Assembly: GCA_964637025.1 (NCBI GenBank)
Contig: CAZWTL010000003.1
Location: 4,056 to 68,055, forward strand
Length of the DNA: 64,000 nt
From: an uncultured Syntrophaceae bacterium
GTDB taxonomy: Bacteria; Desulfobacterota; Syntrophia; Syntrophales; UBA5619
Direction of reading: 5' to 3'
The notes under the pieces were generated by a model. It worked only from the letters and a program-made list of their open reading frames with translations. It was not told the DNA's origin and did not search any database. The position numbers and the translations under genes are program-made. Below are positions 4,679 through 41,462 of this stretch, piece by piece; position 1 is the first letter of the stretch; the number at the start of each line of letters is the position of its first letter.

Positions 4679-4737
4679 AGGTCAGGCACGCTTCCCTCGT
4701 TTGCAGGGAAGATCACGAACGACCAAGGAGGTAATCT

Positions 4738-6320: not shown

Positions 6321-6334
6321 CGCAAGGAGTTGCC

Positions 6335-10066: not shown

Positions 10067-10133
10067 CTGCAAGGTATGGATTATTGCTCGAACAGGCGAT
10101 AACCAAATAAAAACTTTCAGAAAGGATGGATCT

Positions 10134-11096
10134 ATGAAGAAACTGTCTCTTTGGTGTTTGGCGGTTGTTTTTCTGTTGGCTCCCGGTCTGACCGCCGGTG
10201 CGGCCGATTTTCCCAAGGGACCCATAACCTATCTCATCCCGTTCAATCCGGGCGGACAATCCGATGTGGAGGCGCGTTTGCAGCAGCCCTATCTGGAAAA
10301 GGCGCTGGGAACGAAGATCATCGTGGAATACAAACCGGGAGCCGGCGGGGCTCTGGCGTGGAGCCAGTTCAGCAAGGCCAAGCCCGACGGTTATACAGTC
10401 TGCGGCATCAATATTCCGCACATCATCCTGCAGCCGCTCTCCCAGAAGGATGCCGCCTTCAAGACAACGGACCTGAAGCCCCTCTCCATCTTCGAATCGA
10501 CCCCGATTGGACTGGCGGTCAAGAAGGGATCCAAGATCAACACGCTCCAGGAGTTCATTGATTACGCCAAGGCCAATCCCGGCAAGATCACCGTCGGCAT
10601 TTCAGGCAAGCTCTCCGGCCATCACATGGCCTCTCTGGAATTTGAAAAGAAAACAGGCACCAAGCTGACGCTGGTCACCTTTACCGGTGCGGCGCCCCAG
10701 GCGACGGCGCTTCTGGGCGGCCATATCGAGGCCATCTGGGGGAACTCCTCCGACCTGGTCAGCTATTACAACGACATGAAGGTGCTGGCGATCGGCACGG
10801 AAAAGCGAATGGCCACCCTGCCCGATGTGCCGACCTTCCAGGAATTGGGCATGAAATTCTACCCGCGGATCGACCGCGGCGTGGCCGTGCCGAAGGATAC
10901 GCCGGCCGACATCACGGCTATCCTGGAAAAGGCCTTCCTGGATACGGTGAACGAAAAGGATTACAATGAGAAAATAACCAAGGCGGGCTTCGTGGCCATG
11001 AGCCTCAACAGCAAGGAGGCCACGAAATACATCGCCGAGCAGACGGAAGCGTACACGAAGCTGCTGGTCGAACACGATCTGCTGCTGAAGAAATAA
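10134..11096 (+). CDS. tctC: TTT periplasmic substrate-binding protein, TctC/Bug family (system 2)
   Basis: ATG 10134 opens the signal peptide MKKLSLWCLAVVFLLAPGLTAGAA. Bug-family core YLIPFNPGGQSDVEARL...PGAGGALAW. The ORF-track frame 10038-11096 was trimmed. Confidence 0.85.
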   Translation: MKKLSLWCLAVVFLLAPGLTAGAADFPKGPITYLIPFNPGGQSDVEARLQQPYLEKALGTKIIVEYKPGAGGALAWSQFSKAKPDGYTVCGINIPHIILQPLSQKDAAFKTTDLKPLSIFESTPIGLAVKKGSKINTLQEFIDYAKANPGKITVGISGKLSGHHMASLEFEKKTGTKLTLVTFTGAAPQATALLGGHIEAIWGNSSDLVSYYNDMKVLAIGTEKRMATLPDVPTFQELGMKFYPRIDRGVAVPKDTPADITAILEKAFLDTVNEKDYNEKITKAGFVAMSLNSKEATKYIAEQTEAYTKLLVEHDLLLKK

Positions 11097-11294
11097 CGGT
11101 CTGTGCGCGTTTCTATCGCCCGCAGGGTCCTCACGGGAGGGTCCTGCGGGCCATCCGTTTGGCCGTCGGACCTCCATGCTCCAGGATGAAGGGGCAACCA
11201 GCAGCGAACACCGCGGGCTTCAGGCGCCTCCCCGGCCCCTGACTTTCAAGACACCCCGCCGGACCGTTCCGTGAGATCGATCCGAAGCCTTTTC

Positions 11295-11320
11295 AGGATC
11301 GAAATCTTCCTGTCGATCCT
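11295..11320. promoter_or_regulatory. Inverted repeat AGGATCGA-N10-TCGATCCT upstream of the larA-like operon promoter
   Basis: Perfect 8-bp arms at 11295-11302 and 11313-11320, in the AT-richer 600-bp intergenic region. A related GATCGATC palindrome lies at 11274-11281. Confidence 0.4.
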
Positions 11321-11364
11321 GTCCGATGTATGGTCCATCGTATCTAAAATGCGGCATTTTTCTC

Positions 11365-11393
11365 TTGACACGCGATTCCCTTTTACATATATG
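11365..11393 (+). promoter_or_regulatory. Sigma70-like promoter candidate for the larA-like/OFOR/comA operon
   Basis: TTGACA (11365-11370), 17-nt spacer, TATATG (11388-11393). It sits in a locally AT-rich stretch about 310 nt upstream of ATG 11706. Confidence 0.4.
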
Positions 11394-11705
11394 TTTCCTA
11401 ACGATATTAGGCAGTCAGAAGGAAATGAACCGCCGGTCGGCACGTGCTGCAATGGAAATGACGCGTCCCGTTGCATGATCGGACAGAAACGATGAGCGGG
11501 GGGCTGATGCGGCCAGGAAGATTGACGTGGCCGATTCTGCGGTAAGGTTTTTCATTCGGCCGACGTCAACGCGACCTCACCAGACCGCTTCCTTCATCTC
11601 CGCACGCTGCAGGGACGGTTGTCCGTCCCAGTCCTTCGGCGCTGAACAGGCGGAGAGATCCTTCGGGAACCGTTTCCGCCAAGCATAAAGGATTGCTTTG
11701 AACCC

Positions 11706-12971
11706 ATGCAGACAGCCTTGAAATACGGGCAGGATCTCCTGTCGCTTTCCCTCCCGGAAAGAGCCAGTGTATCCGTCCTCCAACCCTCCAGCCTGCCCGT
11801 ACTGAACAATGTGGAGGAGTCCTTCAACCGCGCCATGGACAGCCCGCTGGGCGGCCTGATGCTGGAGGCGATGGCGGCGCCAGGCACGGTGTCCATTGTC
11901 GTGCCTGACGAGACCAGGCCGGCGCCGGTCAAGACGCTCCTGCCGCTGCTGCTCAAACGGCTATACAGGGCCTTCCCGGAATTGCGTCCCGCCGATATCA
12001 CGATCGTTGTGGCCGCGGGGCTGCATCCGCCCCTCGATGAATCTGGACTGAGGCGTGTGGTGCCGGAGGCGGTTGCGCCGGGCTGCCGGGTCATTTCCCA
12101 CGACGCGCTCCACTCCCCAATGAGGGACTTCGGCCGCACGAGCCGCAACACGCCGGTGCGGATCAACTCCTGCTTCGCCGAGGCGGATCTCAGACTCCTG
12201 ATCGGCAATATCGATCCCCATCAGTTCGTGGGCTTCACGGGAGGCGCCAAGGGGGCCGTTATCGGTTGCGGATCGGCCAGGACCATTGAGGCCAACCATG
12301 CCCTGATGTTTCACGACTTGGCCAGGGTGGCCAACATCGAAGGCAACCCCGTGCGCGCGGACATCGACGAAGCGGGCCGGATGATCGGCATCCCGATGGT
12401 CATCAATGTCGTACTCGACGGGGACAAGAGGCCGGTGCAGCTTCTGGCCGGCGAACCGGTGGCCGTCTACCGGACCGGCGCCGCGACCTGCGCGGCGATT
12501 TACGGGGTGGCCGTTCCGGATCCGTTCGATATGGCCGTCGCCTCCTGCGGGGGACACCCGAAGGACATCACCCTCTACCAGGCCCAGAAGGGGCTGGCCC
12601 ATGCGGCCCAGGCCGTGAAACCCGGCGGAAAGATCCTGCTGCTGGCCGCCTGTCCGCAAGGGGTGGGGGATGATGTCTATTTCGAGTACGCCTCACGGTT
12701 TCCGACGCCCCAGGCCGCACTGGAAGACTTCAAAAAAACCGGATTTCGAATGGGGGCCCACAAGGCCTTTCTTTTCGACAGGATCCTGGCGGCTTTCGAC
12801 GTGGCTATCGCCTCGGACCTGGATGCGGCGATCCTGCAGCAGTGTCATCTGCGGGCCTGCGATCCTCAGCAAACGGTGGAACGCTGGGTTGCGGACTTTT
12901 CCGGGAAACCTTCCCTGGCCGTCATTCCCAATGCGAACACCACCTATTTTTATCAGCCATCAGCCCCGTGA
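11706..12971 (+). CDS. LarA-family (nickel-pincer cofactor dependent) 2-hydroxyacid racemase/epimerase homologue
   Basis: 421 aa. N-terminal LarA/DUF2088-like layout (VSIVVPDETRPAP...VVAAGLHPP) and the segment DPHQFVGFTGGAKG. That segment resembles the LarA His / G-(F/Y)-(S/T)-G-G-x-K cofactor-lysine region as I remember it. Confidence 0.75.
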   Translation: MQTALKYGQDLLSLSLPERASVSVLQPSSLPVLNNVEESFNRAMDSPLGGLMLEAMAAPGTVSIVVPDETRPAPVKTLLPLLLKRLYRAFPELRPADITIVVAAGLHPPLDESGLRRVVPEAVAPGCRVISHDALHSPMRDFGRTSRNTPVRINSCFAEADLRLLIGNIDPHQFVGFTGGAKGAVIGCGSARTIEANHALMFHDLARVANIEGNPVRADIDEAGRMIGIPMVINVVLDGDKRPVQLLAGEPVAVYRTGAATCAAIYGVAVPDPFDMAVASCGGHPKDITLYQAQKGLAHAAQAVKPGGKILLLAACPQGVGDDVYFEYASRFPTPQAALEDFKKTGFRMGAHKAFLFDRILAAFDVAIASDLDAAILQQCHLRACDPQQTVERWVADFSGKPSLAVIPNANTTYFYQPSAP

Positions 12972-13086
12972 GGGGTGTTGTTCCGACGGGCCGGGCAGAC
13001 GCCAGGCATGGGAAACGTCTTGGAGATCGTCCCTGCATGTGGAACCCATCCGGGTGCAGGGTTCATGAACGGGGAGGCTTGGGGGC

Positions 13087-13296
13087 ATGGTCATCAAAAT
13101 CAACAGGGATTTCTGCAAGGGGTGCGGCTTCTGCATCACCTTCTGCCCGAAGAAGGTCTATGAGCGGTCGGGAGAACTCAACAAGAAGGGGTATGAACCG
13201 CCCAAGGCCGCAAGGCCGGAGGATTGTTCGGAGTGCGGGATGTGCGATCTCTATTGTCCCGAGTTCGCCATTGTGCTCGAGAGGGAATCGGCCTGA
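13087..13296 (+). CDS. 2-oxoacid:ferredoxin oxidoreductase delta subunit (2x[4Fe-4S] ferredoxin)
   Basis: 69 aa with two CxxCxxCxxxCP motifs (CKGCGFCITFCP, CSECGMCDLYCP). RBS GGGGAGG lies upstream. Confidence 0.85.
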   Translation: MVIKINRDFCKGCGFCITFCPKKVYERSGELNKKGYEPPKAARPEDCSECGMCDLYCPEFAIVLERESA

Positions 13297-13476
13297 CGCG
13301 GCGCCAGAATGTCGATTGTGGGAAGAACCTGGACGGCCTGTCCTGGATCTTCCCCGGACAGGGCGGACCCTGCGATATCCGGCCGGCATGGTTGCACGGA
13401 GGTTCGACCAAGTCGTCCGGGAAACCACTAGACGCTCCCTTCCGGGATCAGGGCTTAAGAACAGGAGGTTGAAGTT

Positions 13477-14646
13477 GTGTTGAAACAGGAATGCAGCATC
13501 AACAAATTTTTCGTCCAAGGCGACGAGGCCATTGCCGAAGGCGCCATCGCCGCGGGTTGCCGCTACTTTGCCGGTTATCCGATCACCCCGGCATCGGAGA
13601 TCTCGGAAACCATAGCCAAGCGGTTCCCGGAAGTGGGCGGCGTGGCGATCCAGATGGAGGACGAACTGGCCTCGATCCATTCGGTGGGCGGGGCGTCCGT
13701 GGCCGGAATGAAGGCCATGACCGTCTCCTCGGGCCCGGGGATCAGCCTGAAGCTCGAGGGGCTGGGCTGGGGCATCAAGAACGAGCTCCCCTATGTTGTG
13801 GTGGACGTGCAGCGCGCGGGACCCAGCAACGGCGTCGCGACGCGGGTGGGGCAGGCGGATCTCTACACCGTGAAGTACGGATCCGCCGGAGGAAACAACT
13901 CGATCATCGCCCTGTCGCCCATGAACGTTCAGGAGGCCTTCGATCTCACCGTCGAATGTTTCAACCTGTCGGAAAGCTTCAGGACCCCGGTCTTTCTGCT
14001 GACCGATGAAACCGTAGGGCACACCCGGGAGTTGCTCGTCATCCCCGACGAGAGGGAGCTGAAGATCGTTCCCCGCCGCAAACCGACGGTCCCGCCCTCG
14101 GAATTTCTGATGTATCCGCTCGACACCCCCGGGGCCATCGATTATCCCTATCCCAATATCGGCGAGGGCTACGGCATCTGTGTGTCGCCCTATACGCATA
14201 CGCCCAGAGGGTATGCCACGACCGCGGAAAAGGATCAGGACCGGATGGCGATCCATCTGGTCCGCAAGATCACGGACCATCTGGACCGGCTGACCCGCGT
14301 CCAGGAAGAGATGATCGACGACGCCGAATACGGGATCATCGCTTACGGCTGCGAGGCGAGGCCGGCCATGGAGGCCGTGAAAAAGGCCCGGGCGGAGGGA
14401 ATGAAGGTCGGATTCCTCCGGCCCATCATCGTCTGGCCTTTTCCGGACGAGCCGGTCTATCGCATGGCCTGCAAGGTCAAAAAGATCCTGGTGCCCGAAC
14501 TGAACCGGGACGGCCAGCTCTCCCGCGAGGTCCAGCGGGCGGCAAAGGGCCAGGCCGACGTCTATCACCTGGGGTCGGGCGGGGTGGAGACCCACCAACC
14601 GATGCAGGTATACAACGAATTGATGCGCATCATCGGAGAAAAATAG
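13477..14646 (+). CDS. 2-oxoacid:ferredoxin oxidoreductase alpha subunit
   Basis: GTG 13477 lies 8 nt after AGGAGG (13463-13468). The N-terminus GDEAIAEGAIAAGCRYFAGYPITPASEI is typical of KorA/PorA/VorA. Confidence 0.85.
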   Translation: MLKQECSINKFFVQGDEAIAEGAIAAGCRYFAGYPITPASEISETIAKRFPEVGGVAIQMEDELASIHSVGGASVAGMKAMTVSSGPGISLKLEGLGWGIKNELPYVVVDVQRAGPSNGVATRVGQADLYTVKYGSAGGNNSIIALSPMNVQEAFDLTVECFNLSESFRTPVFLLTDETVGHTRELLVIPDERELKIVPRRKPTVPPSEFLMYPLDTPGAIDYPYPNIGEGYGICVSPYTHTPRGYATTAEKDQDRMAIHLVRKITDHLDRLTRVQEEMIDDAEYGIIAYGCEARPAMEAVKKARAEGMKVGFLRPIIVWPFPDEPVYRMACKVKKILVPELNRDGQLSREVQRAAKGQADVYHLGSGGVETHQPMQVYNELMRIIGEK

Positions 14647-14727
14647 CATCGGCCTGCCGGATATCTCGAAAGCGGCCGCAACAGCAGCATCCGGCATTCC
14701 CAAGCAACAGCGAAGGAGGCGACACCT

Positions 14728-15591
14728 ATGAAGAACCAAGGAGGAGATTTGGAAAAAACCATCCATCCCTTGGCGGCAAAATATCTGCGGCAGGAGAGGA
14801 TGCCGCACATGGCCTGTCCCGGCTGCGGCATAGGCCAGGTGGTCCATTCGACCCTGATCGCCTGCGATGAACTGGGCCTGACTCCGGAGGACACGGTCTG
14901 GGTTCAGGGCGTGGGCTGCTCGAGCCGCATCACCTATACCCTCTGGAAGGGGGACAGCATCGATGCGCACCACGGCCGCATTTTCGCCGTGGCCACAGGC
15001 ATGAAGCTCTCCCGACCGGATCTCAATTTCATCTGCTTCACCGGGGATGGCGACTGCATGTCGATCGGCGGGAACCACTTTCTTCATGCCTGCCGCCGCA
15101 ATCTCGATGTCACGGCCATCATGTTCAACAACGCCATATACGGGATGACAGGCGGACAGGTGGCCCCCACGACCCCGATGGGGGCCATGACGACGACCAC
15201 CCCTTACGGCAACATCGAGGATCCCATGGACTCGATCCAGGTGGCCATTGCCGCTGGCGCCTCGTACGTGGCCCGTTGGCGCTCGACGGATTTCCGTCAG
15301 GTCGTCCAGTCCATCAAAAAGGGGATACAGACCAAGGGATTCAGTTTCATCGAGGTTCTCGTGCAGTGTCCGACCCAATTCGGCCGATACGTGCTCAGGA
15401 CGGGGGATCCCGTCAAGATCGTCCGCTGGTACAGGGAACACACCGTCACTTTGCAGAAGGCGGAGAAGATGGCTCCGGAAGAGATCAAGGACAAGATGCT
15501 CATCGGCGAATTCGTTCACCGGACCGACCGCACGGGCGTCGTGGAGCGTTATTGGGACATGATTCATAAAATCCAGAGGGAGAGGGCTTAG
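14728..15591 (+). CDS. 2-oxoacid:ferredoxin oxidoreductase beta subunit (TPP-binding)
   Basis: CPGCGIG near the N-terminus, and the TPP/Mg motif FTGDGDCMSIGGNH...NNAIYGMTGGQ. RBS GAAGGAGG. Confidence 0.85.
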   Translation: MKNQGGDLEKTIHPLAAKYLRQERMPHMACPGCGIGQVVHSTLIACDELGLTPEDTVWVQGVGCSSRITYTLWKGDSIDAHHGRIFAVATGMKLSRPDLNFICFTGDGDCMSIGGNHFLHACRRNLDVTAIMFNNAIYGMTGGQVAPTTPMGAMTTTTPYGNIEDPMDSIQVAIAAGASYVARWRSTDFRQVVQSIKKGIQTKGFSFIEVLVQCPTQFGRYVLRTGDPVKIVRWYREHTVTLQKAEKMAPEEIKDKMLIGEFVHRTDRTGVVERYWDMIHKIQRERA

Positions 15592-15594
15592 ATC

Positions 15595-16146
15595 ATGGCC
15601 AGAACGGAGATTCGTTTTGCGGGATTCGGAGGTCAGGGTCTGTTGCTGGCGGGCATCATGATGGGGACGGCGGCCACAATCCTGGACTGCAAGAACGCCG
15701 CCCAGACCCAGTCCTACGGAACCGAGGCCAGAGGCGGGGCCAGCCAGTGCAACGTGGTGATCGACGACGAGCCGATCACCTATGTCGGCGTCGTCAACCC
15801 GGATGTCTTCGTGTGCATGAGCCAGGAGGCGTACGACAAGCTCATCGGCGACGTCCGCGAGCAGGGCCTCGTCTTTTACGACAGCGACCTGGTCAAGGTC
15901 AAGGAGCTGCCGAAGTGCCGGCAGATCCCCATCCCGGCCACCAAGACGGCAATCGATATCGTCGGCCGGAAGATCGCGGCCAACATGGTCATTCTGGGCA
16001 GCGTGATCGAAAGCACGGGGATTATCGATGCCGATCTGGTCAAAAGGTGCATACGGGAAAACGTTCCCAAGGGGACGGAGGAGATCAACATGCAGGCCTT
16101 CGACAAGGGAAGGGAGCTCTATCGTGAAACCGCGACGAAGGCCTGA
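15595..16146 (+). CDS. 2-oxoacid:ferredoxin oxidoreductase gamma subunit
   Basis: FAGFGGQGLLLAGIMMG...QSYGTEARGG is typical of the gamma subunit. It starts 4 nt after the beta subunit stop. Confidence 0.85.
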   Translation: MARTEIRFAGFGGQGLLLAGIMMGTAATILDCKNAAQTQSYGTEARGGASQCNVVIDDEPITYVGVVNPDVFVCMSQEAYDKLIGDVREQGLVFYDSDLVKVKELPKCRQIPIPATKTAIDIVGRKIAANMVILGSVIESTGIIDADLVKRCIRENVPKGTEEINMQAFDKGRELYRETATKA

Positions 16147-16167
16147 CGCATTCGAGGAAGGAGAGAC

Positions 16168-17142
16168 ATGAACAAGAAGATCCTCATCACGGAGAACATC
16201 ACGGGGTCCGGCATCGACGCGCTCAAGGCGAAATACGACTGCCGCTGGGACAAGGACCTCTGGCAGAAGCCGGAGGAACTCCTGGCGATCGCCGGTCAAT
16301 TCGACGCGATCATCGTGCGCAATCAGACGAAAGTGACTGCCGATCTTCTGAAGGCGGCCGCCCGATGCCTGGTGATCGGACGGGCGGGCGTGGGCGTCGA
16401 CAACGTGGATGTCAAAACGGCCTCGGAGCTGGGGATCGCGGTGGCCTTCACCCCGGAGGAGAACGCGATCTCTGTGGCGGAGCAGGTTCTGGGGATGATG
16501 CTCTGCATGGCCAGGCGATTCGTGGGGGCCGATGCGAGCGTCAAGTCGGGCAAGTGGGACCGGATGTCTTTTCTGGGTGTGGAGCTCTTCGGCAAGACCC
16601 TGGGCATCGTCGGACTGGGAAAGATCGGGGCCCGGGTGGCGACCCGCGCCCGCGCCTTCGGCATGCGCATCATCGCGTACGATCCCTACCTTACCCGGCA
16701 CCATATCCACGTAACGGAAAACCAGGCCGAACTGAAGGATCTGGACACGCTGTTTTCGACCAGCGACTTCATCACCATCCACCTTCCACTGACGGCTGAG
16801 ACCCGTCACCTGATCGGCAGGGAAAAGCTGAGCCGGATGAAGCCTACGGCGTATCTGGTCAACACGTCGCGCGGTCCCGTCGTGGACGAGGCCGCTCTCT
16901 GCGACGCCCTGAAACGGAACGTGATCGCCGGGGCGGCCCTGGATGTGCGCGAAGAGGAGCCGCCCAAGGCCAGCCCGCTCAACGCCCTACCGAACATCCT
17001 GTTGACGCCCCACGTGGCGGCCTTCACCGTGGAGGCGCAGGACAAGGTTCAGGAGTCGCTTGCCGAGGACGTGGACCGGATCCTGGAGGGCAGGCCGGCG
17101 TTGCGGTTCGCGAACTTTCCCGCACCGAAGCGATCCGCGTGA
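16168..17142 (+). CDS. D-isomer-specific 2-hydroxyacid dehydrogenase (SerA/PGDH-like), substrate unknown
   Basis: NAD fold GIVGLGKIGARVATRA. Catalytic-region motifs NTSRGPVVDE and LLTPHVAAFT. Confidence 0.85.
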   Translation: MNKKILITENITGSGIDALKAKYDCRWDKDLWQKPEELLAIAGQFDAIIVRNQTKVTADLLKAAARCLVIGRAGVGVDNVDVKTASELGIAVAFTPEENAISVAEQVLGMMLCMARRFVGADASVKSGKWDRMSFLGVELFGKTLGIVGLGKIGARVATRARAFGMRIIAYDPYLTRHHIHVTENQAELKDLDTLFSTSDFITIHLPLTAETRHLIGREKLSRMKPTAYLVNTSRGPVVDEAALCDALKRNVIAGAALDVREEEPPKASPLNALPNILLTPHVAAFTVEAQDKVQESLAEDVDRILEGRPALRFANFPAPKRSA

Positions 17143-17169
17143 CGACATATAGACAATGAGAGGAAGCCT

Positions 17170-18159
17170 ATGAACGCAAAATTCTACAAAAGAGCCGTCC
17201 AGTGTCTGGATGCCAAAATCGGCATCGTCTCCAACAACCGGGAACTGATCCGGGACAAGCGTTTCTTCCGTTCCCCCAAGATGGAATCGCTCCTGACCAA
17301 CATCCACAAGCTGCCTGAGATCCCCTACAAGGATCTGGACGCGGAATTCATCGTGGTCGACGACCCCCAGGTGAAGCCCTCCGTCTCCATCGGCCCCCGG
17401 ACCTGCTTCTGCGCCGGGGACTTCACCCGGATGGAGAAGGAGTGCGCCGACATCCGCTACGGGCTGTTCGGCAATCTGGGACTCTTCTTCCGCTATACCC
17501 TGGCCGTTCTGGAGCGTTGCCACGGCATTTACAGTTTTCACGCCAGCTCGATGTTCATCCCGAGCAACAAGACCCTGCTTTTGGTCATCGGAGAGGCGGG
17601 CGCCGGTAAGACCGTATATCTGCTCGAGGCGGTGGTTCAGGGGTGGAAAATTTTCAGCACGGAAATGACCCACATGCGGCTCACGAAGAGCGGCTACGAA
17701 TTCTACAAGGGCTCGCTCTACGACAATGTTCGCGTGGGCAACCTGGTCTATGACTTTCCCGAGGCCATCGACCGGCTGAAGTTGAAGATCCCGAAGGTGG
17801 ACAACATCTGGGGCCACAAGATCACCATCGATCTGGAGCCGCTGCAGGCGGCCGATGTCTATCGGAATCCCCGGGTGCAGATCGCCAATGTGAAGATCGA
17901 ATCTGACCGGACCAAGGCCGACGTCAATGTGATGAAGAACAGGGACAAGGTCGCCTGGACGCTCTACAAGAACGCCAGCGAAAAGCTGGCGCCGCCCTGG
18001 CTGATGTACGAGAGGATTCCGGTGGACGGGTGCGGGGACGAAGCCCTCTCCCGCGCCCGGATCGATGCCATGCGCCGGTTCATGGAAATCGGCGACATCC
18101 TGCCTGTGAAGTCCATATTCGCGGGCGTCAAGAACTGCCTGGAAGGGATCGAGATGTGA
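17170..18159 (+). CDS. Hypothetical soluble protein with an HPr-kinase/PEPCK-like P-loop (putative small-molecule kinase)
   Basis: The only recognisable element is LLLVIGEAGAGKTVYLLEAVVQGWKIFSTE, which resembles the HprK C-terminal GxSGxGKS...E...G...(D/E) segment. RBS GAGAGGAAG. Confidence 0.5.
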   Translation: MNAKFYKRAVQCLDAKIGIVSNNRELIRDKRFFRSPKMESLLTNIHKLPEIPYKDLDAEFIVVDDPQVKPSVSIGPRTCFCAGDFTRMEKECADIRYGLFGNLGLFFRYTLAVLERCHGIYSFHASSMFIPSNKTLLLVIGEAGAGKTVYLLEAVVQGWKIFSTEMTHMRLTKSGYEFYKGSLYDNVRVGNLVYDFPEAIDRLKLKIPKVDNIWGHKITIDLEPLQAADVYRNPRVQIANVKIESDRTKADVNVMKNRDKVAWTLYKNASEKLAPPWLMYERIPVDGCGDEALSRARIDAMRRFMEIGDILPVKSIFAGVKNCLEGIEM

Positions 18160-18274
18160 TGCGGAAAGGGGCCTGTATTGCGGGATCCGCTGCACGACAG
18201 GCGAGGCACAAGATTTAATCATCCATTCCGGGACGGATCGGACCGGAGTCATATTCAACTGAGGAGGTTTGAGA

Positions 18275-19096
18275 ATGAGTGTAAAGGCGTTTGACGGCGT
18301 TTTTGAAATGCCGGTTCAGGGCAGGACGATGAAGCCGCGGAAGAACGGCGTCACCATGCTGATCGACAAGGGGCTGGGGCTGACCGGAACGGAAGACCTC
18401 ATGCAGATGGCGGCCGACTACATCGATATGGTCAAGATGACCTTCGGCACCACCGCCTTCATGGACATGGGCGTGGTCGAGGAGAAAATCGAGATCCTCA
18501 AGAGCTACGATGTGTACACGATGCCGGGCGGGACCTTCATGGAGGTCTCCGTGTGGCAGAAGCGCTACCCCGAATACCTGCGGCGCTGCAAGGAGCTGGG
18601 TTTCAACGCGATCGAGATTTCCGACGGCACCATCGAGTTCGATCTGGAGACCCGCAAGGACTGCATCAAGAGGGCCGTGGACATGGACTTCCTGGTCCTG
18701 ACCGAGGTGGGCAAGAAGGACCCCAATGAAAAGGTCGCCACGGACCTGATGCACAAGGAGATCGCCTCGGACCTGGCCTGCGGCGCGACGAAGGTCATCG
18801 TGGAGGCGAGAGAGGCCGGCAAGGGCGTGGGCATCTATGACGCCTCGGGCAACGTCAAGACCGACGAGATCGACGCCATCATCGCCGGCGTCGACGATCC
18901 CACCGTCCTGGAGTGGGAGGCGCCCATCAAGAACCAGCAGCAGCATCTGATCCTCCGGTTCGGCTGCAACGTGAACCTCGGCAATGTGCCCCCTGAAGAC
19001 ATCCTGGCCCTGGAAGCCCTGCGCGACGGTCTCCGCGGCGACACCCTGAAAAAGGCCTGGGAAGCCGACAAGGCCTGGACAAGGCACAACAAGTAA
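18275..19096 (+). CDS. comA: (2R)-phospho-3-sulfolactate synthase family protein (ComA)
   Basis: ComA-like sequence throughout: RKNGVTMLIDKGLG, VKMTFGT, FNAIEISDGTIEF, VLTEVGKKD. ATG 18275 lies 7 nt after GAGGAGG; the ORF-track start at TTG 18269 is less likely. Confidence 0.85.
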   Translation: MSVKAFDGVFEMPVQGRTMKPRKNGVTMLIDKGLGLTGTEDLMQMAADYIDMVKMTFGTTAFMDMGVVEEKIEILKSYDVYTMPGGTFMEVSVWQKRYPEYLRRCKELGFNAIEISDGTIEFDLETRKDCIKRAVDMDFLVLTEVGKKDPNEKVATDLMHKEIASDLACGATKVIVEAREAGKGVGIYDASGNVKTDEIDAIIAGVDDPTVLEWEAPIKNQQQHLILRFGCNVNLGNVPPEDILALEALRDGLRGDTLKKAWEADKAWTRHNK

Positions 19097-19132
19097 ATCC
19101 GGAACACCGCGCACAGCGCGTTCACACACAAC

Positions 19133-19167
19133 AAAAAGCGGGACCGTTTTTTACGGCCCCGCTTTTT
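19133..19167. terminator. Bidirectional rho-independent terminator between convergent comA and aspC
   Basis: AAAAA, then GCGGGACCGT, loop TTTTT, ACGGCCCCGC, then TTTTT (19133-19167). The stem has one bulge on each side and is flanked by an A-run and a T-run. Confidence 0.75.
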
Positions 19168-19224
19168 GTTGTGAACGGCTTCCTTGAGACGGCAGGGCGC
19201 TCGCCTGCTCGCCTCTCGATCTCC

Positions 19225-20409
19225 CTATTTGAGCGCCGCGGCGATCCGGTCGAGACCCTTTTCGATGTTCGCCATGGAGGTGGCGTAGGACATGCGGAAA
19301 TGGTCGTCAGCACCGAAGGCGATCCCGGGCACCACGGCCACCTTCGCCTCGTTGAGCAGCATATCGGCCAAGTCGAGGGACCCTTGGATCCGTTTGCCGC
19401 TGATGGTCGTTCCGATGAACGAGGTAAAATTCGGGAAGACATAGAATGCGCCGTCCGGTTCGACGCAGGTCAGCCCCGGTATCTCGTTGATCCGCTGCAT
19501 GATGCGGCGCCTGCGCCTGTCGAATTCGGCCGCCATGGCCGCCACGACGCTCTCCGGCGTCTTCAGGGCCTCGATGGCCGCCGCCTGCGCCATGGTCGCC
19601 GGGTTCGAAGTCGAATGCGATTGCAGGTTGTCCACGGCCGCGACGATCTCCCGGTTGTCCGACGCGAGATACCCGATGCGCCACCCCGTCATTGCGTAGG
19701 TCTTGGAAACGCCGTTGACCACAATGGTCTGCGCCTTGACCTCCTTGGAGAGGGAGGCGATGGAGAGGTGTTTTTTCCCGTTGTAGAGCAATTTCCCGTA
19801 GATCTCGTCGGAAATGATCAGAAGCTTGTGTTTCAGCGCCACATCGGCCAATTTTTCGAGCGATTTCTCCGAAAGCACCGCTCCGGAAGGGTTGGAGGGC
19901 GAATTCACGACCATGGCCTTGGTCTTCCCGGTGATCTTTCTCTCCAGCCGATCGAAATCGATCTCGTACCCCTTGGATTCATCCAGTTCAACGAAAACCG
20001 GCACTCCGTCGGCGATCTTCACCTGCTCCTCGTAGGAAACCCAGTAAGGCGAGAAGATAATCACCTCGTCTCCCGGATCCAGGATCGCCATGAAAATGTT
20101 GTACAGGGTGTGCTTGGCGCCGCAGGAGACGACAATATCCGCAGGCCTGTATTCCAGCCCCTGGTCTTGCCTGAATTTTTCGGCCACCGCGGCCTTGAGT
20201 TCGGGAATGCCCGACGCCGGCGTGTATCGCGTCTTGTTGGCCCTGATGGCGTCGATCCCGGCCTCCTTGATGTTTTCCGGCGTGTTGAAGTCCGGCTCGC
20301 CCGCTCCGAAACCGACCAGGTCCACGCCGTCCTTGATCATCTGTTTGGCCTTGGAGTCTATCGCCAGGGTCAGCGACGGCGCCACTTTCTTCAGTCTGTT
20401 CGCAATCAT
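19225..20409 (-). CDS. aspC: Aspartate/aromatic aminotransferase, class I (AspC-like)
   Basis: GAGEPDFNTPENI, and the PLP-lysine motif GVSKTYAMTGWRIGYL. RBS GGAGG lies upstream on the minus strand. Confidence 0.85.
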   Translation of the reverse strand: MIANRLKKVAPSLTLAIDSKAKQMIKDGVDLVGFGAGEPDFNTPENIKEAGIDAIRANKTRYTPASGIPELKAAVAEKFRQDQGLEYRPADIVVSCGAKHTLYNIFMAILDPGDEVIIFSPYWVSYEEQVKIADGVPVFVELDESKGYEIDFDRLERKITGKTKAMVVNSPSNPSGAVLSEKSLEKLADVALKHKLLIISDEIYGKLLYNGKKHLSIASLSKEVKAQTIVVNGVSKTYAMTGWRIGYLASDNREIVAAVDNLQSHSTSNPATMAQAAAIEALKTPESVVAAMAAEFDRRRRRIMQRINEIPGLTCVEPDGAFYVFPNFTSFIGTTISGKRIQGSLDLADMLLNEAKVAVVPGIAFGADDHFRMSYATSMANIEKGLDRIAAALK

Positions 20410-20500
20410 TTCTAAACCTCCGGTATGGATCTATTCCGTTTTCCGTTCCCCCTGCGGCAGCCGCCGGCCGGGCACGCGCCCGGATACGTGGCCGGTTCTT

Positions 20501-21226
20501 TCAGAGCAGGATCTTGCTCAGGAAGTCCTTGGCCCTATCCGTTTTCGGCGCCGAGAAGAAAGACTTGTCCGTTCCCCGCTCGATGATCTGTCCCCCGTCC
20601 ATGAAGATGATCTCGTCGGCGACCTCGCGGGCGAAACCCATCTCATGGGTGACCACGGCCATGGTCATTCCCGACTTGGCCAGGTCGATCATGACATCGA
20701 GCACCTCCTTGATCATCTCCGGATCGAGCGCCGACGTCGGTTCGTCGAAGAGCATGATCTCGGGCTCCATCGCCAGCGCCCGCGCGATGGCCACGCGCTG
20801 CTGCTGTCCGCCGGAAAGGTTGCCCGGGTATTTCTGCGCCTGTTCCGGGATCCCGACGCGCTCAAGCAACTGGATCGCCTTCTCCTCGGCCTGTTTCTTG
20901 GGGATCTTCTTGACCTTGATCGGCGCGATCGTGATGTTGTCGATGACCTTCAAATGGGGATAAAGCTCGAACCGCTGAAAAACCATCCCCATCTTCTGCC
21001 GCAGTTGGATCAGATCAACCTTGGGATCCTTCAGGGAGACGCCGTCGACAATGATGTCCCCTTCCTGAAAGGGTTCGAGGCCGTTGAGGCTCTTGAGCAG
21101 GGTGCTCTTCCCGGAGCCGGAGGGACCGCAGATGACCACCACCTGGCCCCGATGGATCTCCTCATTGATGTTGCTCAGAACCTTGTGGGTCCCGAACCAT
21201 TTGCTGACATTGACGATCTTGATCAT
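20501..21226 (-). CDS. Polar amino-acid ABC transporter ATP-binding protein (GlnQ-like)
   Basis: Walker [39 protein letters not shown] at 21226 (MIKIVNV...). The longer ORF-track frame to 21871 is an artefactual extension running into the permease gene. Confidence 0.9.
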
Positions 21227-21885
21227 TTGGCGGCACCTCGCTTGGCTTCCAGTTTCTTGCTGTACCGGCTCATCAGGAAGCAGAAAATAAAGTAAATCAG
21301 CCCGACGAAAGCGTAGATCTCCACGCTTTTCATCTCGCGGGCGTCGACGATGCTGGCGGACCGCAGGAATTCCTTGAGGCCGATGACGTAGGCCAGGGAG
21401 GTATCCTGAAACACAACGACCGTCTGCGTGATCAGAGAGGGGACCATGTTGCGCAGCGCCTGGGGAAGGATCACGAAACGCATGGTCTGGGCGTAGTTGA
21501 ATCCCGTCGAATAGGCGGCTTGGACCTGCCCCTTGGAGATGGACTGGATTCCGGCGCGTACGATCTCGGCGAAATAGGCGGCCTCGAAGACCACGAAGGC
21601 CACTGCAGCGGAGATGAAATCGCCCAAAGGCCTGCCGGCGATGATGGGCACGAGAAAATAGAACCAGAAAATGACCAGCAGAAGGGGCAGGCTTCGGAAG
21701 AAATTGACGAAGATCGTTGCCGGGTAGTAAATGAGTTTGATGTTGCTCAGTCGGGCCAAGCCGACCAGAATGCCGCACAGCAGCCCCCCGCTGATGGCGA
21801 CCACGGCAAGTTCGAATGTCGTGAGCAAACCCTTCACGAAAAAGGGCATATTGTTGACGATCACGGTCCAATCCAGGGCGCTCAT
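21223..21885 (-). CDS. Amino-acid ABC transporter permease (His/Glu/Gln/Arg/opine family)
   Basis: 220-aa polytopic protein with the segment [30 protein letters not shown]. It overlaps the ATPase start by 4 nt. Confidence 0.85.
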
Positions 21886-21892: not shown

Positions 21893-22615
21893 CTATCTCC
21901 TCCTCGTGATCAGACCCGGCACGGCCAGCCGTTTTTCAACCATGCCCATGATCAGGACAACCATGAGGGTGATGACCATGTAGGCGAGGGATGCCGCCGT
22001 GGTCGCTTCGATGCCGCGAAAGGTATAGGCCTCGATCTGCTGGCTCATGAATGTCGTTTCCAGCACGCCGACCGTCATCGCCAGGGACGTGTTTTTGAAA
22101 ATGGTCAGGCATTCCGTGGTCAGAGGGGGAATCATGATCCGGACCGCAAGCGGAATGATGATGTACCGATACGTCTGAAGGTGCGTAAATCCCGTGCTGA
22201 GAGCCGCATAGTACTGATCGGTGGGGATCGATTGCATGCCGGAGCGCACCTGCTCGGCCACGCGGGATGCGGTGTATAGGGAAAGTCCGATAACGACGAC
22301 CCAAAATTCGAAATTCGGAAGCTCGCGGTAGAGGAATTTTTCGATGAAGTCGGGCAGAATGCTCGGAGCGGCAAAATACCAGAAAAAAAGCTGTACCAGC
22401 AAGGGGATGTCGCGAAAAAGTTCCGTATAGGCGGTTGCAAAAATACGGACGGGCTTCCAGGGGGTGATGCGCATCGTGCCGATGATGATTCCCAGGGTCA
22501 GCGCAATGCACCAGCTGATGAAGCCGAGACGGATCGTGGTCCAGATCCCCTGGAGCATCCAAGTCCCATAAGGCTCCGTCCAGATCACGGCCCAGTTGAA
22601 ATCATAAGAAAGCAT
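21893..22615 (-). CDS. Amino-acid ABC transporter permease (second subunit)
   Basis: 240-aa polytopic protein with the segment IPTDQYYAALSTGFTHLQTYRYIIIPLAVR, paralogous to the adjacent permease. Confidence 0.85.
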   Translation of the reverse strand: MLSYDFNWAVIWTEPYGTWMLQGIWTTIRLGFISWCIALTLGIIIGTMRITPWKPVRIFATAYTELFRDIPLLVQLFFWYFAAPSILPDFIEKFLYRELPNFEFWVVVIGLSLYTASRVAEQVRSGMQSIPTDQYYAALSTGFTHLQTYRYIIIPLAVRIMIPPLTTECLTIFKNTSLAMTVGVLETTFMSQQIEAYTFRGIEATTAASLAYMVITLMVVLIMGMVEKRLAVPGLITRRR

Positions 22616-22709: not shown

Positions 22710-23585
22710 CTACGACGGCCAGGCCTGAAGTTTCAGCAGGGTTTTGAACTCTTCCGTCATGGGGATCGGGAGGACGCCCTTGGGGCCGAACCATTTGTCA
22801 TACATGGTCATATAGCGTCCGTCCTTGATCATCTCGATGATCTGGGCGTTCACGAAATCCAGGAACGCCGAATCGTTCTGGCGCACGATGAAGGCATAGG
22901 GGTCATAGGTGATCATTTCGCCGACGATTCTGTAATCATCGGGCTTGGGGGCTTTGGCCTTCAGGCCCCCCAGGTGGGTGCCGTCGCCGCAGTAGGCGTC
23001 GATGATCCCCTTCTCCAGGGCCAGCATGCCCTGAGGATGCTCCTGGTAAACGACGATCGTGGCGGGTGGTTTGATGGCCCCCTTCTCGTTCAAATTCCGG
23101 ATCGCAGCCTCGTTGGTCGATCCCTGGGCCGCGCCGACTTTCTTGCCGGCAAGATCCTTGGCGCTCTTGATCTTGCTGTTCTTCTTGACCAGCAACTGGG
23201 AACCGGTCAGGAAAACGGTGATGGTGAAATCGACGGTCTCCTCACGCCCGATGGTGTGCGTGGTGGATCCGCACTCCATGTCGATCGTGCCGTTGGCCAC
23301 GAGAGGTATTCGGGTCTTGGGATTCACGGTCTTCAGTTCGATGTTCAGCGGTTTCCCCAGTTTCTTTTCCAGGGCCGCCTTGAGCTCGTAGGCCATGTCG
23401 ATGCTGAACCCGACCTGCTCGTTCTTTTCGTTGAAGAAGCCGAAGGGAATGGCCCCGTCCCGGACCCCCACGATGAACGTACCCCTCTTGGCGATCGTAT
23501 CCAGGGTGCCTTCCGCAAAGGCGGAAGCGGTAAGACAGAAAACAACTGCCAAAATGATTCCTACCGTGCATAAAGCCTTTTTCAT
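22710..23585 (-). CDS. Amino-acid ABC transporter periplasmic substrate-binding protein (family 3)
   Basis: ATG 23585 opens the signal peptide MKKALCTVGIILAVVFCLTASAFA. The body matches polar amino-acid binding proteins. RBS GGAAAGGAG. Confidence 0.85.
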   Translation of the reverse strand: MKKALCTVGIILAVVFCLTASAFAEGTLDTIAKRGTFIVGVRDGAIPFGFFNEKNEQVGFSIDMAYELKAALEKKLGKPLNIELKTVNPKTRIPLVANGTIDMECGSTTHTIGREETVDFTITVFLTGSQLLVKKNSKIKSAKDLAGKKVGAAQGSTNEAAIRNLNEKGAIKPPATIVVYQEHPQGMLALEKGIIDAYCGDGTHLGGLKAKAPKPDDYRIVGEMITYDPYAFIVRQNDSAFLDFVNAQIIEMIKDGRYMTMYDKWFGPKGVLPIPMTEEFKTLLKLQAWPS

Positions 23586-23641
23586 GTTCCGTCTCCTTTC
23601 CGATAATCCGACAATAAATGATGGATGGTCTGCCCGCACTC

Positions 23642-24658
23642 TCATAAAACCCTCGTCGAACCGTCGAGAATCTCGGACCTGTGGGCATAGATCGCTGGAA
23701 TGCCGCCTGTATGCACAAACAGGATCCGTTCTCCCCTTTTGAAATATCCCTTCCGGATCAGATCGATCAGGCCCGCCATGGCTTTTCCCGTATAGCAGGG
23801 ATCCAGAAGGATCCCCTCCGTTCTGGCCGTCAGCCGGACCGCTTCCGCCATTTCAGGCGTGGGCAGGGAGTATCCGGGACCGAGGTAGGCGTCGCAACAC
23901 TTCACGGCATCCCTGGGAATATCAGCGGGAATGCCCACATAAGCGGCAGCACTCCCGGCCAGTCGGTACACGAGCTCTTCCTGTGCCTTCCTGCCCCGGA
24001 CCACATTGATGCCGGTGACCGGCACCGCTGCGCGGTTCCCGTAGAAACCCGTCACGAGCCCCGACTGCGTTCCGCCGCTGCCGCTGGCGCAGACGACATG
24101 GTCCACCGCAAGGCCCGATTCAAAACACTGGCCCAATATTTCCTCGGCGCAGGCCACGTATCCCAAATCGCCCAGCGCATTGGAACCACCCACCGGAATG
24201 ACATACGGTTTTCCACCCTCCCGGCGTGTCTCTTCGGCCAGTTGCTCCATGGCCTGCATCATGTCCACCCCGCCCGGAACGATGCGTATCCCGTCGACGC
24301 CCAGCAGCCTGAAGAGGAAGTTGTTGCCGCTGGCATCCGGCTGGTAGCTGCCGGGGACCCGTTCCTCCAGGACGAGTCTGCATTTCATCCCTTCCCGGAC
24401 CGCCGCCGCCAGCGTCAGGCGGCAGTGGTTGGACTGCACGGCCCCTCCCGTGATGAGCGTGTCCGCGCCTTGAGCCAGCGCGTCGGCCACGAGAAATTCG
24501 AGCTTCCGCGTCTTGTTGCCCCCGGCGGTCAGACCGAGAAGATCGTCTCTTTTGATATAAAGGGTGGGGCCACCCAACACATCGGATAGCCTGGAGAGTT
24601 TTTCGATAGGGGTTTGACCCTGGGTGTAGCGCCTGCGTGGAAATCTCGCCAGATTCAT
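23642..24658 (-). CDS. PLP-dependent lyase of the ACC deaminase / D-cysteine desulfhydrase family (the family that also contains L-cysteate sulfo-lyase CuyA)
   Basis: YIKRDDL...GGNKTRKLEF (PLP-lysine motif), GGSNALG, HTGG. ATG 24658 (MNLARF...). Confidence 0.8.
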   Translation of the reverse strand: MNLARFPRRRYTQGQTPIEKLSRLSDVLGGPTLYIKRDDLLGLTAGGNKTRKLEFLVADALAQGADTLITGGAVQSNHCRLTLAAAVREGMKCRLVLEERVPGSYQPDASGNNFLFRLLGVDGIRIVPGGVDMMQAMEQLAEETRREGGKPYVIPVGGSNALGDLGYVACAEEILGQCFESGLAVDHVVCASGSGGTQSGLVTGFYGNRAAVPVTGINVVRGRKAQEELVYRLAGSAAAYVGIPADIPRDAVKCCDAYLGPGYSLPTPEMAEAVRLTARTEGILLDPCYTGKAMAGLIDLIRKGYFKRGERILFVHTGGIPAIYAHRSEILDGSTRVL

Positions 24659-24805
24659 AACATATGATCCCTCAGGTGCGACACCTCTAACAGACTTTTG
24701 GGACCCTGTCAACATCTTTCGGCCTATTCAGCAGCCGCGCATCCCTTCTCCGGAAGAGAAGACTCCCGCCAGGCTTCCGGCCTTTGAACGCCGGAGACGA
24801 AGCAC

Positions 24806-25726
24806 TCACTGGAGTCCCCACAACCAGAAGGAAAGGGTGGCCATGGAGAGCAGCGTGGAGACCATGATGTCCGACGACATCAGGCTCTTGTCGGCCCCGA
24901 GTTTGCTGGAGAGGAGGTAAGAGGAGAAGGCCGTCGGACAGGCCAGGATGATGATACCCACCTTGAAATCGAGTCCCTTGACGCCGGCCTCGGTCAGCAG
25001 AAACCAGCCCAGCAGGACGATCAGCAACAGCTTGATCAGGCACGCCCCGGCGGTTGCCTTGTAGTCCTTCTTGACCTTTTCGAACGAAAGACTTCCCCCC
25101 ATCGAGATCAGGGCCAGGGGCAGAGCCAGATCGGAAAGAAAATGGAGAACATTCACGACGAAAGTCGGGAACGGGATCTGGAAATAGGAGAGGAGCAGGC
25201 CGGCCATGCAGGAGAGGATCACCGGATTCGTCACCAGGGCGTTCTTCAGATCGACGATCGATTTCCAGTCCATGGCCCCTTTGAGAGGCCAGGTCAGGGC
25301 CAGCACGGCCAGGATGTTGATCAACGGGCTCATGAAACCGATCAGCACGCTTCCCCGCTGCAGCCCCTCCTCGCCATAGGCCGCCAGCAGGATCGGCAGG
25401 CCGATATAGGTCATGTTGCCCCAAAAAGAACCCTGTGTGAAGGACCCCACCTCTCTGGGCGGCAGGCGCAGAAGACGGGCGACGCCATAGGCGACCACCA
25501 TGCAGACGACCACTGTCAGATAGCAGACCAGGATCAACCGGGGGTTGAAATTCATGTCAAATGAAGAGGTGCCGATCTTCCAGACGAGCAGCGACGGAAC
25601 CGCCACGAAATAGGCCAATTGGCTGATCTTCTCTAAGAAAACCTTGTCGACGAAATCGGATCGCCGTATGGCGTACCCCAGTGCAATGATGAGAAAGACG
25701 GGCAGAACGACGTTTAAAAATACCAT
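24806..25726 (-). CDS. AEC (auxin efflux carrier) family membrane transporter
   Basis: About 306-aa protein with roughly 10 TM segments; the N-terminus MVFLNVVLPVFLIIALGY is typical of the AEC family. ATG 25726. Confidence 0.75.
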   Translation of the reverse strand: MVFLNVVLPVFLIIALGYAIRRSDFVDKVFLEKISQLAYFVAVPSLLVWKIGTSSFDMNFNPRLILVCYLTVVVCMVVAYGVARLLRLPPREVGSFTQGSFWGNMTYIGLPILLAAYGEEGLQRGSVLIGFMSPLINILAVLALTWPLKGAMDWKSIVDLKNALVTNPVILSCMAGLLLSYFQIPFPTFVVNVLHFLSDLALPLALISMGGSLSFEKVKKDYKATAGACLIKLLLIVLLGWFLLTEAGVKGLDFKVGIIILACPTAFSSYLLSSKLGADKSLMSSDIMVSTLLSMATLSFWLWGLQ

Positions 25727-35947: not shown

Positions 35948-35965
35948 CCAAGGGAAAACGATTTT

Positions 35966-40359: not shown

Positions 40360-40393
40360 CCGGCAGATGCAGCGGCGGGTTGAAAAACCCGTG

Positions 40394-41460: not shown

Positions 41461-41462
41461 CG

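Follow-up and report, generated by a model that had tools for sequence, protein, structure and literature searches.

Sulfolactate and cysteate are central C3 sulfonates, derived from sulfoquinovose, 2,3-dihydroxypropane-1-sulfonate (DHPS), cysteinolate and the oxidation of cysteine, and their desulfonation provides sulfite for H2S production in sediments and guts. In Paracoccus pantotrophus, Chromohalobacter salexigens, Desulfovibrio and Bilophila, sulfolactate is cleaved without ATP by SuyAB, a single lyase that depends on Fe(II) and belongs to the altronate-dehydratase family. In papers of 2024-2025 from the most active group in the field of anaerobic sulfonate degradation, C-S cleavage of sulfolactate and cysteate proceeds via SuyAB or CuyA (PMC11193023, PMC12814064). 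The other closely related system is the phosphoenolpyruvate (PEP) branch of coenzyme M (CoM) biosynthesis in class I methanogens, in which ComA, ComB, ComC and ComDE act and whose intermediates, PEP, sulfite, (2R)-phosphosulfolactate, (R)-sulfolactate and sulfopyruvate, all recur in the scheme proposed below (PMC9457059). Here we describe a stretch of 64,000 nucleotides (the window) from contig CAZWTL010000003.1 of an uncultured Syntrophaceae bacterium of the Syntrophales, which encodes a 329-residue P-loop protein (X, 17170-18159, + strand) directly followed by a homologue of the CoM enzyme ComA (18275-19096, + strand). On balance we think it probable, from the gene content and predicted structures, that X and ComA constitute a two-enzyme sulfolactate desulfonation module, with X as a candidate (R)-sulfolactate 2-kinase and ComA running in reverse as a proposed phosphosulfolactate sulfite-lyase, the PEP formed being converted to pyruvate and ATP.

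The X family is rare, with 179 clusters at 50% identity in an exhaustive profile search of 1.84 billion proteins, 349 and 510 proteins at 90% identity in two word-indexed searches, and 59 loci in 185,579 species genomes. Carriers include Syntrophales and other Thermodesulfobacteriota, Chloroflexota including Dehalococcoidales, Aminicenantes and other Acidobacteriota, Eubacteriales, Oscillospiraceae, one Sphingomonadaceae metagenome-assembled genome (MAG), and, as the sole cultured carrier found, the dichloromethane fermenter Ca. Formimonas warabiya; the closest relatives of the window protein are from Syntrophales MAGs, are approximately 90% identical, and are labelled 'hypothetical protein' at NCBI. 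Neighbouring genes were scored by tblastn in all loci, and the counts given here refer to the 49 unique loci in which X is flanked by 1 kb or more on either side. Every one of these 49 has a ComA gene no further than 10 kb from X, and in 47 the distance is at most 300 nt. In the 53 pairs that have X ahead of ComA the two are always on the same strand, and the median gap of about -8 nt means that they overlap. The identities of X and of ComA to the window pair rise and fall together (r = 0.93 over 61 pairs). This pairing is far above chance, and X and ComA are a near-obligate, co-inherited pair across several phyla. Coupling this tight indicates that the target of X is specific to ComA. PEP and sulfite are both widely used metabolites, whereas phosphosulfolactate is known solely as the ComA product (PMC9457059) and would be what a dedicated partner acts on.

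The identity of the downstream gene, which the preliminary description of this DNA had taken for a clear ComA about 115 nt beyond a 329-codon reading frame, is confirmed by profile matches to PF02679 (E 9.5e-89, 297 bits against a cutoff of 25) and to TIGR03849 (339.6 bits against an equivalog cutoff of 280). The protein aligns over its full length with Methanocaldococcus jannaschii ComA (1QWG; E 5.6e-61, residues 25-262 against 12-250), and the motifs EISDG, LTEVGKK, EaRE.GKG, EAP.K.QQ and LRGDT are kept between the two. Its start is most likely the ATG at 18275, which is preceded by GAGGAGG and leaves a gap of 115 nt to X; an alternative TTG start at 18269 lies two codons upstream.

The reading frame of X begins with an ATG behind a good ribosome-binding site (GAGAGGAAG), and the P-loop segment LLLVIGEAGAGKTVYLLEAVVQGWKIFSTE occupies residues 136-165. 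Profile searches say little more: X has no Pfam match at E<=0.01, no match to the HprK model TIGR00679 at E<=1 and none to the phosphoenolpyruvate carboxykinase (PEPCK) profile (PF01293) in Pfam or NCBIfam, and its sole NCBIfam match is to the FomB kinase model NF000361 (16.8 bits against a cutoff of 400), confined to residues 110-176 around the P-loop. Searching the sequences of the PDB with phmmer and with a 34-sequence profile gave nothing at E<=10, and relatives emerged by fold comparison only. An AlphaFold (AF2) model built on 34 homologues is of high confidence (pLDDT 91.2, pTM 0.89), and the best 50 Foldseek matches of this model in the PDB are all PEPCKs, of both ATP and GTP types (E 2e-9 to 5e-6, probability 1.0, 360-430 aligned columns, query TM score 0.42-0.53), the AF2 model and the Foldseek matches both indicating the two-domain PEPCK fold. 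Entries 3dt7 and 9e35 are among the matches. PEPCK binds beta-sulfopyruvate, a mimic of oxaloacetate.

The conserved residues of X are consistent with nucleotide binding. Its Walker-A motif, G141-E-A-G-A-G-K147-T148, is invariant in 34 close and 12 distant sequences, and G141, G144, G146, K147, T148, H124, E165, D185, R188, R247 and a further set of Arg and Lys residues are invariant in homologues down to 31% identity. X shares with E. coli Pck the arrangement His-(16 residues)-GxxGxGKT. Aligning the X profile to E. coli Pck with hhalign places X 116-151 on Pck 224-258, with H124 on H232 and K147/T148 on K254/T255; the alignment is short, has a probability of 15%, and serves for residue mapping, being by itself no proof of homology. 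The active-site residues of PEPCK include His232, Lys254/Thr255, Lys212-Lys213 and Arg333 (E. coli numbering). By our own inspection of the sequences the Mn2+ motif Lys212-Lys213 falls on N102-L103 of X, a placement that automatic Smith-Waterman alignment, unreliable beyond the P-loop, did not reproduce, and the E-x-x-R333 of PEPCK may match E244-x-x-R247 by the same unsecured inspection.

More distant relatives of X (about 320 aa) have weak matches to models of HprK-related kinases A and B, FomB, PEPCK and HprK, those to HprK scoring 15-16 bits against a cutoff of 240. With the PckA/HprK superfamily, in which these kinases and FomB are included, X thus shares the fold, the spacing between His and P-loop and the weak profile matches of its relatives, and it differs in its size (329 as against about 540 aa), in having no significant match to PF01293, PF07475 or TIGR00679, and in that an HPr-type substrate is not indicated. 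On this evidence X is a new, shortened family within the PEPCK/HprK P-loop superfamily that belongs to neither named family, with a fold nearer to PEPCK than to HprK. The preliminary description had seen the P-loop as the only recognisable feature of X and had likened it to HPr kinase or PEPCK; the P-loop, the invariant Lys-Thr and the superfamily kinase fold stand, but the likeness extends over the whole protein (Foldseek E 2e-9) and does not favour HprK.

Other assignments of X were considered and rejected. Membership of the HprK family was rejected for lack of a profile match, and a true PEPCK was rejected because of the size of X, the missing profile match and the apparent loss of the Lys-Lys motif. 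Desulfonation of sulfopyruvate by X, in the manner of the PEPCK 'decarboxylation', was rejected for chemical reasons, since SO3 would leave with the wrong polarity; such a reaction would also leave ComA unexplained.

The neighbours of the pair in other genomes point to the direction of flux. The cluster of Ca. Formimonas warabiya runs from GntR through ComA and X to a pyruvate kinase (TIGR01064, 387 bits, cutoff 306) and two tripartite tricarboxylate transporters (TTT), and in a second locus of Firmicutes type, from an Oscillospiraceae MAG (L064), a pyruvate kinase gene is likewise found directly 3' of X. Pyruvate phosphate dikinase (PPDK) is encoded directly 5' of X in 9-12 of the 49 loci, an arrangement seen in a large Thermodesulfobacteriota clade, and in a Chloroflexota locus (L038) the pair is adjoined by enolase. 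Because two unrelated enzymes that convert PEP to pyruvate have been recruited independently, one of them practically irreversible, PEP is suggested to be the product of the module, and the earlier proposal that the ATP would be recovered through pyruvate kinase gains support from the same genes.

The wider surroundings have a catabolic character, as would be expected of a degradative module. GntR-type regulators are found near the pair in most clades, TctA within 10 kb of X in 12 of the 49 loci, and a homologue of the 2-hydroxyacid dehydrogenase within the same distance in 28. TauE is encoded beside the pair in L001, L021 and L046, and in L045 a PF03601/YeiH-family transporter lies directly upstream of X, from a family that bears the NCBI name 'putative sulfate exporter'. 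CuyA together with an aminotransferase and RidA is present in the window, L010, L011 and L071, and dsrAB lie 1.7-9.8 kb from X in six loci. Pfam annotation covered the neighbourhoods of L001, L002, L004-L007, L068-L071 and L073, and a GC3-based gene caller was used for the flanks of high-GC loci; none of these neighbourhoods contains comB, comC, comDE or xsc, so that the pair is found without the biosynthetic set in every distinct one of them. In comparison with the PEP branch of CoM synthesis, the X-ComA loci therefore have a P-loop kinase-like protein in the position of the phosphatase and a context of importers, regulators, pyruvate kinase or PPDK, exporters and dsr genes, and the flux that we propose is opposite.

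An independent link between X-ComA and cysteate catabolism comes from L071, the layout of which resembles the cuy cluster of Bilophila (PMC11193023). On this FCB-type contig (10938-17998) the genes after X and ComA encode two aminotransferases, with an amidohydrolase and an NhaC-type antiporter between them, and then RidA and a PALP enzyme.

In the proposed pathway X would phosphorylate the 2-hydroxyl of (2R)-3-sulfolactate with ATP to give (2R)-2-phospho-3-sulfolactate and ADP, and ComA would then work in reverse, releasing PEP and sulfite by an enolase-like beta-elimination. Formation of a secondary-alcohol phosphate ester from ATP by a kinase is favourable towards the ester only. Pyruvate kinase, or PPDK as its equivalent, would convert PEP and ADP to pyruvate and ATP, so that the net reaction, sulfolactate to pyruvate and sulfite, would be that of SuyAB with no net ATP spent; since the sum is the same, the overall thermodynamics would be those of the known pathway. 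The chemistry would be the sulfonate analogue of enolase and pyruvate kinase, a 2-phospho-3-X-propanoate losing its C3 substituent to give PEP and then pyruvate and ATP, whereas the leaving group would be sulfite rather than water, ComA is an unrelated TIM barrel, and the phosphate ester would first have to be made by a dedicated kinase. Pyruvate could pass to the 2-oxoacid:ferredoxin oxidoreductase (OFOR) and sulfite to DsrAB and DsrC. Which compound X phosphorylates and from which donor, the direction in which ComA runs, the stereochemistry and the parts assigned to the LarA-type racemase, the dehydrogenase and the OFOR are all inferred.

Sulfolactate would enter through the TTT transporters, or be formed from L-cysteate by an AspC-type aminotransferase and the D-2-hydroxyacid dehydrogenase. 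We take L-configured sulfolactate to be (R), by our own Cahn-Ingold-Prelog assignment, in which case it is the (S)-isomer that the D-specific dehydrogenase would be expected to form or consume. With a dehydrogenase of (S) specificity and a ComA substrate that is (2R), there would be a job for the LarA-type racemase in supplying (R)-sulfolactate, and malate and sulfolactate are near-isosteric. The feeder steps, namely cysteate aminotransferase, sulfolactate dehydrogenase, inversion of the stereocentre and TTT importer, are shared with the SuyAB pathway (PMC11193023; PMC12814064; PMC5812351); in the cysteate pathway of P. pantotrophus an aminotransferase gives sulfopyruvate, which an NADH-dependent dehydrogenase reduces to sulfolactate (PMC11193023), and the importer SlcHFG of sulfolactate is of the TTT family (PMC5812351). 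Inversion is where the feeders differ, the proposed role of the LarA-type enzyme of the window being analogous to that of the dehydrogenase pair SlcC/ComC of Chromohalobacter (PMC12814064), and at the cleavage step X-ComA would replace a lyase acting without ATP with a phosphorylation-primed reaction that yields PEP.

A number of observations weigh against this desulfonation reading, and they are considered here together with the alternatives. One locus found in a later look-up, L072 (GCA_975968675.1, 10001-10990), is the only departure from the pairing: it encodes an X that is 59% identical and has no ComA within 10 kb, and X is followed there by a biotin carboxyl carrier protein, biotin carboxylase, GcvH and GcvP. 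The PPDK clade (L002, L017, L018 and L027) has a SuyB-family (GD_AH) gene 8-10 kb upstream of X, and the apparent loss of the Lys212-Lys213 motif means that the catalytic metal site of X may differ. The largest clade, that of the Aminicenantes type (510 clusters), has a bare two-gene unit beside unrelated genes, with no transporter, regulator or exporter nearby and no dsr gene within 10 kb; in correction of the preliminary description, the pair is thus also found where dsrAB are not close by, and it may serve this clade as a means to obtain carbon and sulfur or to handle sulfite. ComA, finally, has been described only in the synthetic direction, from PEP and sulfite (PMC9457059), and PPDK, being reversible, is compatible with either direction and could supply the PEP. 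These last points are what a biosynthetic or detoxifying pair would lead one to expect, in which ComA adds sulfite to PEP and X is a non-orthologous replacement of ComB that removes the phosphate, by hydrolysis or to ADP/Pi, to leave sulfolactate as an osmolyte, sulfite sink or precursor. The nearby 2-hydroxyacid dehydrogenase and aminotransferases could extend such a route to sulfopyruvate or cysteate, and HprK/P, a relative of the X fold, also catalyses phosphorolysis. We nonetheless consider it unlikely, as the invariant Walker-A Lys-Thr and the PEPCK-like fold indicate nucleotide-dependent phosphoryl transfer, and to make ATP from the phosphate ester of a secondary alcohol is uphill; pyruvate kinase, which consumes PEP and is effectively irreversible, is in the operon in two loci, the pair is surrounded by importers, GntR, TauE/YeiH exporters, CuyA and dsrAB, and no annotated neighbourhood has comC or comDE.

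The annotations of some neighbours also weigh on the opposing side. The LarA-family protein of the window scores above the cutoff of the MAR1/LarAH5 malate racemase model (NCBIfam NF052595, 549.6 bits against 462), the OFOR is closest to 2-oxoglutarate types, and in L006/L015 the genes for OFOR, a SucCD-like ligase, fumarase and Sdh are maybe ordinary C4-dicarboxylate or tricarboxylic acid (TCA) cycle genes. LarAH5 is described as a malate racemase, and sulfolactate is unmentioned in the main text of the LarA family paper (PMC11770544). X could on this evidence be a miniature PEPCK, making PEP and CO2 from oxaloacetate and ATP in a malate or C4-dicarboxylate cluster, in which LarA would racemise malate, the dehydrogenase would act on D-malate, and pyruvate kinase or PPDK and the OFOR would follow, and ComA merely tapping the PEP pool; PEPCK is after all the closest fold, with the equivalents of H232 and the P-loop conserved, di- and tricarboxylates are common cargo of TTT transporters (PMC5812351), and genes for fumarase, Sdh/Frd and SucCD lie near the pair in L001 and L006/L015. 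We give this little credence, because the almost invariable company of ComA and the translational coupling of X to it would go unexplained, PEP being ubiquitous and in need of no dedicated supplier, and because phosphosulfolactate would be left without a consumer and the linkage to exporters, CuyA and dsr without a reason; X is moreover 329 rather than about 540 aa long, matches no PEPCK profile and, in our own unreproduced mapping, has lost the Lys-Lys motif. It is equally possible that the same LarA, OFOR, SucCD-like, fumarase and Sdh genes resemble those of C4-dicarboxylate metabolism but are specific to sulfonates, as is the case for SauCD (PMC10413351). Least probable in our view is that sulfite is not involved at all, X phosphorylating glycerate, malate, lactate or tartrate and this subgroup of ComA eliminating water or another group. 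The families of LarA and the dehydrogenase are of broad specificity, and the Aminotran_5 and 2-Hacid_dh genes near Aminicenantes loci resemble a serine-hydroxypyruvate-glycerate route; the window ComA, against this, lies above the TIGR03849 equivalog cutoff and aligns in full with the M. jannaschii enzyme, the linkage to the sulfite-specific dsrAB, TauE, YeiH-family and CuyA genes is recurrent, and the oxygen analogues are already served by enolase and glycerate kinases.

The window genes around X and ComA can be accommodated in the desulfonation pathway as follows. On the + strand there is a single tightly packed string of genes, starting with two TTT transporters identified by Pfam (TctC 4738-5715, TctB 5790-6320, TctA 6317-7843, TctB 8051-8542, TctA 8549-10066 and TctC 10038-11096). 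These are followed by the LarA-family nickel-pincer 2-hydroxyacid racemase of MAR1/LarAH5 type (11706-12971; Lar_N and LarA_C domains), a candidate sulfolactate racemase, and by the four subunits of the OFOR (delta 13087-13296, alpha 13477-14646, beta 14728-15591 and gamma 15595-16146), assigned by POR_N, PFOR_II, TPP_enzyme_C and POR domains and by NCBIfam PRK08659 (437 bits against a cutoff of 411), the delta subunit being a 69-aa 2x[4Fe-4S] open reading frame (ORF). A D-isomer-specific 2-hydroxyacid dehydrogenase (16168-17142; PF02826, PF00389), the candidate sulfolactate/sulfopyruvate dehydrogenase, comes directly before X. A scan of 11000-20500 for promoters and terminators gave sites no more numerous than in shuffled sequence, and no terminator-like site on the + strand of this interval.

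Converging on this string is an import-and-cleavage operon on the - strand. It encodes a class I aminotransferase of AspC type (19225-20409; PF00155, E 3e-80), a candidate cysteate:2-oxoacid aminotransferase whose closest NCBIfam models are aspartate aminotransferases, at scores below their cutoffs; an amino-acid-type ABC importer (ATPase 20501-21871, permease 21893-22615 and Glu/Asp-type binding protein 22710-23645; ABC_tran, BPD_transp_1 and SBP_bac_3), with a glutamate/aspartate binding protein as the closest NCBIfam model of the binding protein; the D-cysteate sulfo-lyase CuyA (23642-24715; NF052482, 511.9 bits against a cutoff of 450); and, adjoining CuyA, an auxin-efflux-carrier family membrane protein (24806-25756; PF03547, E 6e-31; TIGR00946, 84.9 bits, below cutoff), a possible sulfite/sulfate exporter. 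The auxin-efflux-carrier family is that of SuyZ and CuyZ. The neighbours that the preliminary description had named, on both strands, are all present, and it had likewise placed dsrAB correctly at about 9 kb.

The dsr genes are on the + strand, with dsrA (27964-29271) starting 8.9 kb past ComA and followed by dsrB (29283-30398), a small ORF (30415-30657), a dsrN-like gene (30674-32086) and dsrC (32204-32524); the assignments rest on NIR_SIR, NIR_SIR_ferr, CbiA and GATase_3 domains, and the candidate for DsrC shares 71% identity with a PF04358 protein from L004 and has retained the CxxxxxxxxxxC motif at its C terminus. DsrMK-, DsrO- and DsrP-like genes are further along, beyond dsrC. Among the approximately 57 window ORFs of at least 150 aa that were scanned we found no ComB (PF04029), ComC (Ldh_2, PF02615), ComDE/Xsc-type thiamine-diphosphate enzyme, SuyA (SAF) or SuyB (GD_AH) domain, in agreement with the earlier statement that no genes of these kinds were to be seen in the window.

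Two protein families of bacterial CoM synthesis are represented in the window, in that the XcbABCDE pathway of Xanthobacter autotrophicus begins with a ComA homologue (XcbB) and includes a pyridoxal-phosphate (PLP) enzyme of the D-cysteine-desulfhydrase family (XcbE) (PMC9457059). In contrast to that system, the aspartase/fumarase-superfamily proteins XcbC and XcbD are not seen and the PLP enzyme is in the separate, convergent import operon. Its identification as XcbE is ruled out by a score of 287.8 bits against a cutoff of 450, whereas it is above the cutoff for CuyA.

No publication on a 'sulfolactate kinase' was found among open-access papers and bioRxiv, nor was any description since 2021 of a catabolic role for phosphosulfolactate, and the preliminary suggestion that a route of a kinase and reversed ComA was undescribed agrees with this search. 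The new parts are the enzyme family X and the known enzyme ComA proposed in reverse, and the known part is a sulfonate catabolic gene cluster. It seems to us finely balanced whether the pair represents an unrecognised and widespread form of C-S cleavage, in which miniature PEPCK-fold kinases prime an enolase-like elimination of sulfite by reverse ComA in an ATP-neutral manner. Further unrecognised sulfonate enzymes may be encoded nearby, among them a LarA-type sulfolactate racemase and possibly a sulfopyruvate:ferredoxin oxidoreductase and a SauCD-like ligase.

If X and ComA do act in this way, a C-S bond would be broken by a mechanistically different strategy, phosphorylation and then elimination with PEP as the product, and a conserved family of 'hypothetical proteins' would acquire a function, the PEPCK/HprK superfamily gaining a new branch that acts on small molecules. 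The usual reading of comA in the genomes and metagenomes of bacteria is as a marker of CoM or sulfolactate synthesis; in metagenomes it would instead usually mark the degradation of sulfonates. Sulfonate use would be extended to uncultured Syntrophales, Aminicenantes and Chloroflexota, the route feeding sulfite respiration in Thermodesulfobacteriota and the assimilation of carbon and sulfur in Aminicenantes, Chloroflexota and Firmicutes.

Several further features of these loci were noted. An ADP-forming succinate-CoA-ligase-like pair lies directly after the OFOR in L004 (4190-8871), L006 (1103-5761) and L058 (about 1200-5700). SauCD is a succinate-CoA-ligase homologue that acts on sulfoacetate (PMC10413351), and it is pure speculation that the OFOR and ligase might oxidise sulfopyruvate to sulfoacetate with a gain of ATP. 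In L006/L007/L015 (11902-16776) ComA is directly followed by an SdhA/FrdA-like flavoprotein, a fusion of an Fe-S subunit with a Rieske domain, and cytochrome b with c-type haem domains, and then by a CN-hydrolase and dsrAB, an odd respiratory module between ComA and dsr.

In the window itself, a class-III aminotransferase (1372-2841) and an AMP-binding acyl-CoA-type ligase (2795-4678) are encoded on the + strand directly upstream of the TTT transporters, and with TctC these may form another module for sulfonates or amino acids. A 1248-aa ORF on the strand opposite the OFOR genes (13063-16809, - strand) is marked by the GC content of its codon positions (GC1 0.80, GC3 0.58) as a shadow ORF of a high-GC region and no gene. 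Between dsrC and two DsrM/DsrK-like pairs (37808-43085) lie genes for an HdrD/DsrK-like protein (Fer4 and CCG domains) that carries a fused response-regulator receiver domain and for a PAS histidine kinase after it (34196-37399, + strand); such a fusion of redox enzyme and receiver is unusual for a dsr cluster. Between the cuyA operon and dsrA there are genes on the + strand for a DUF6955 protein (26310-26777) and a TPR protein (27135-27755).

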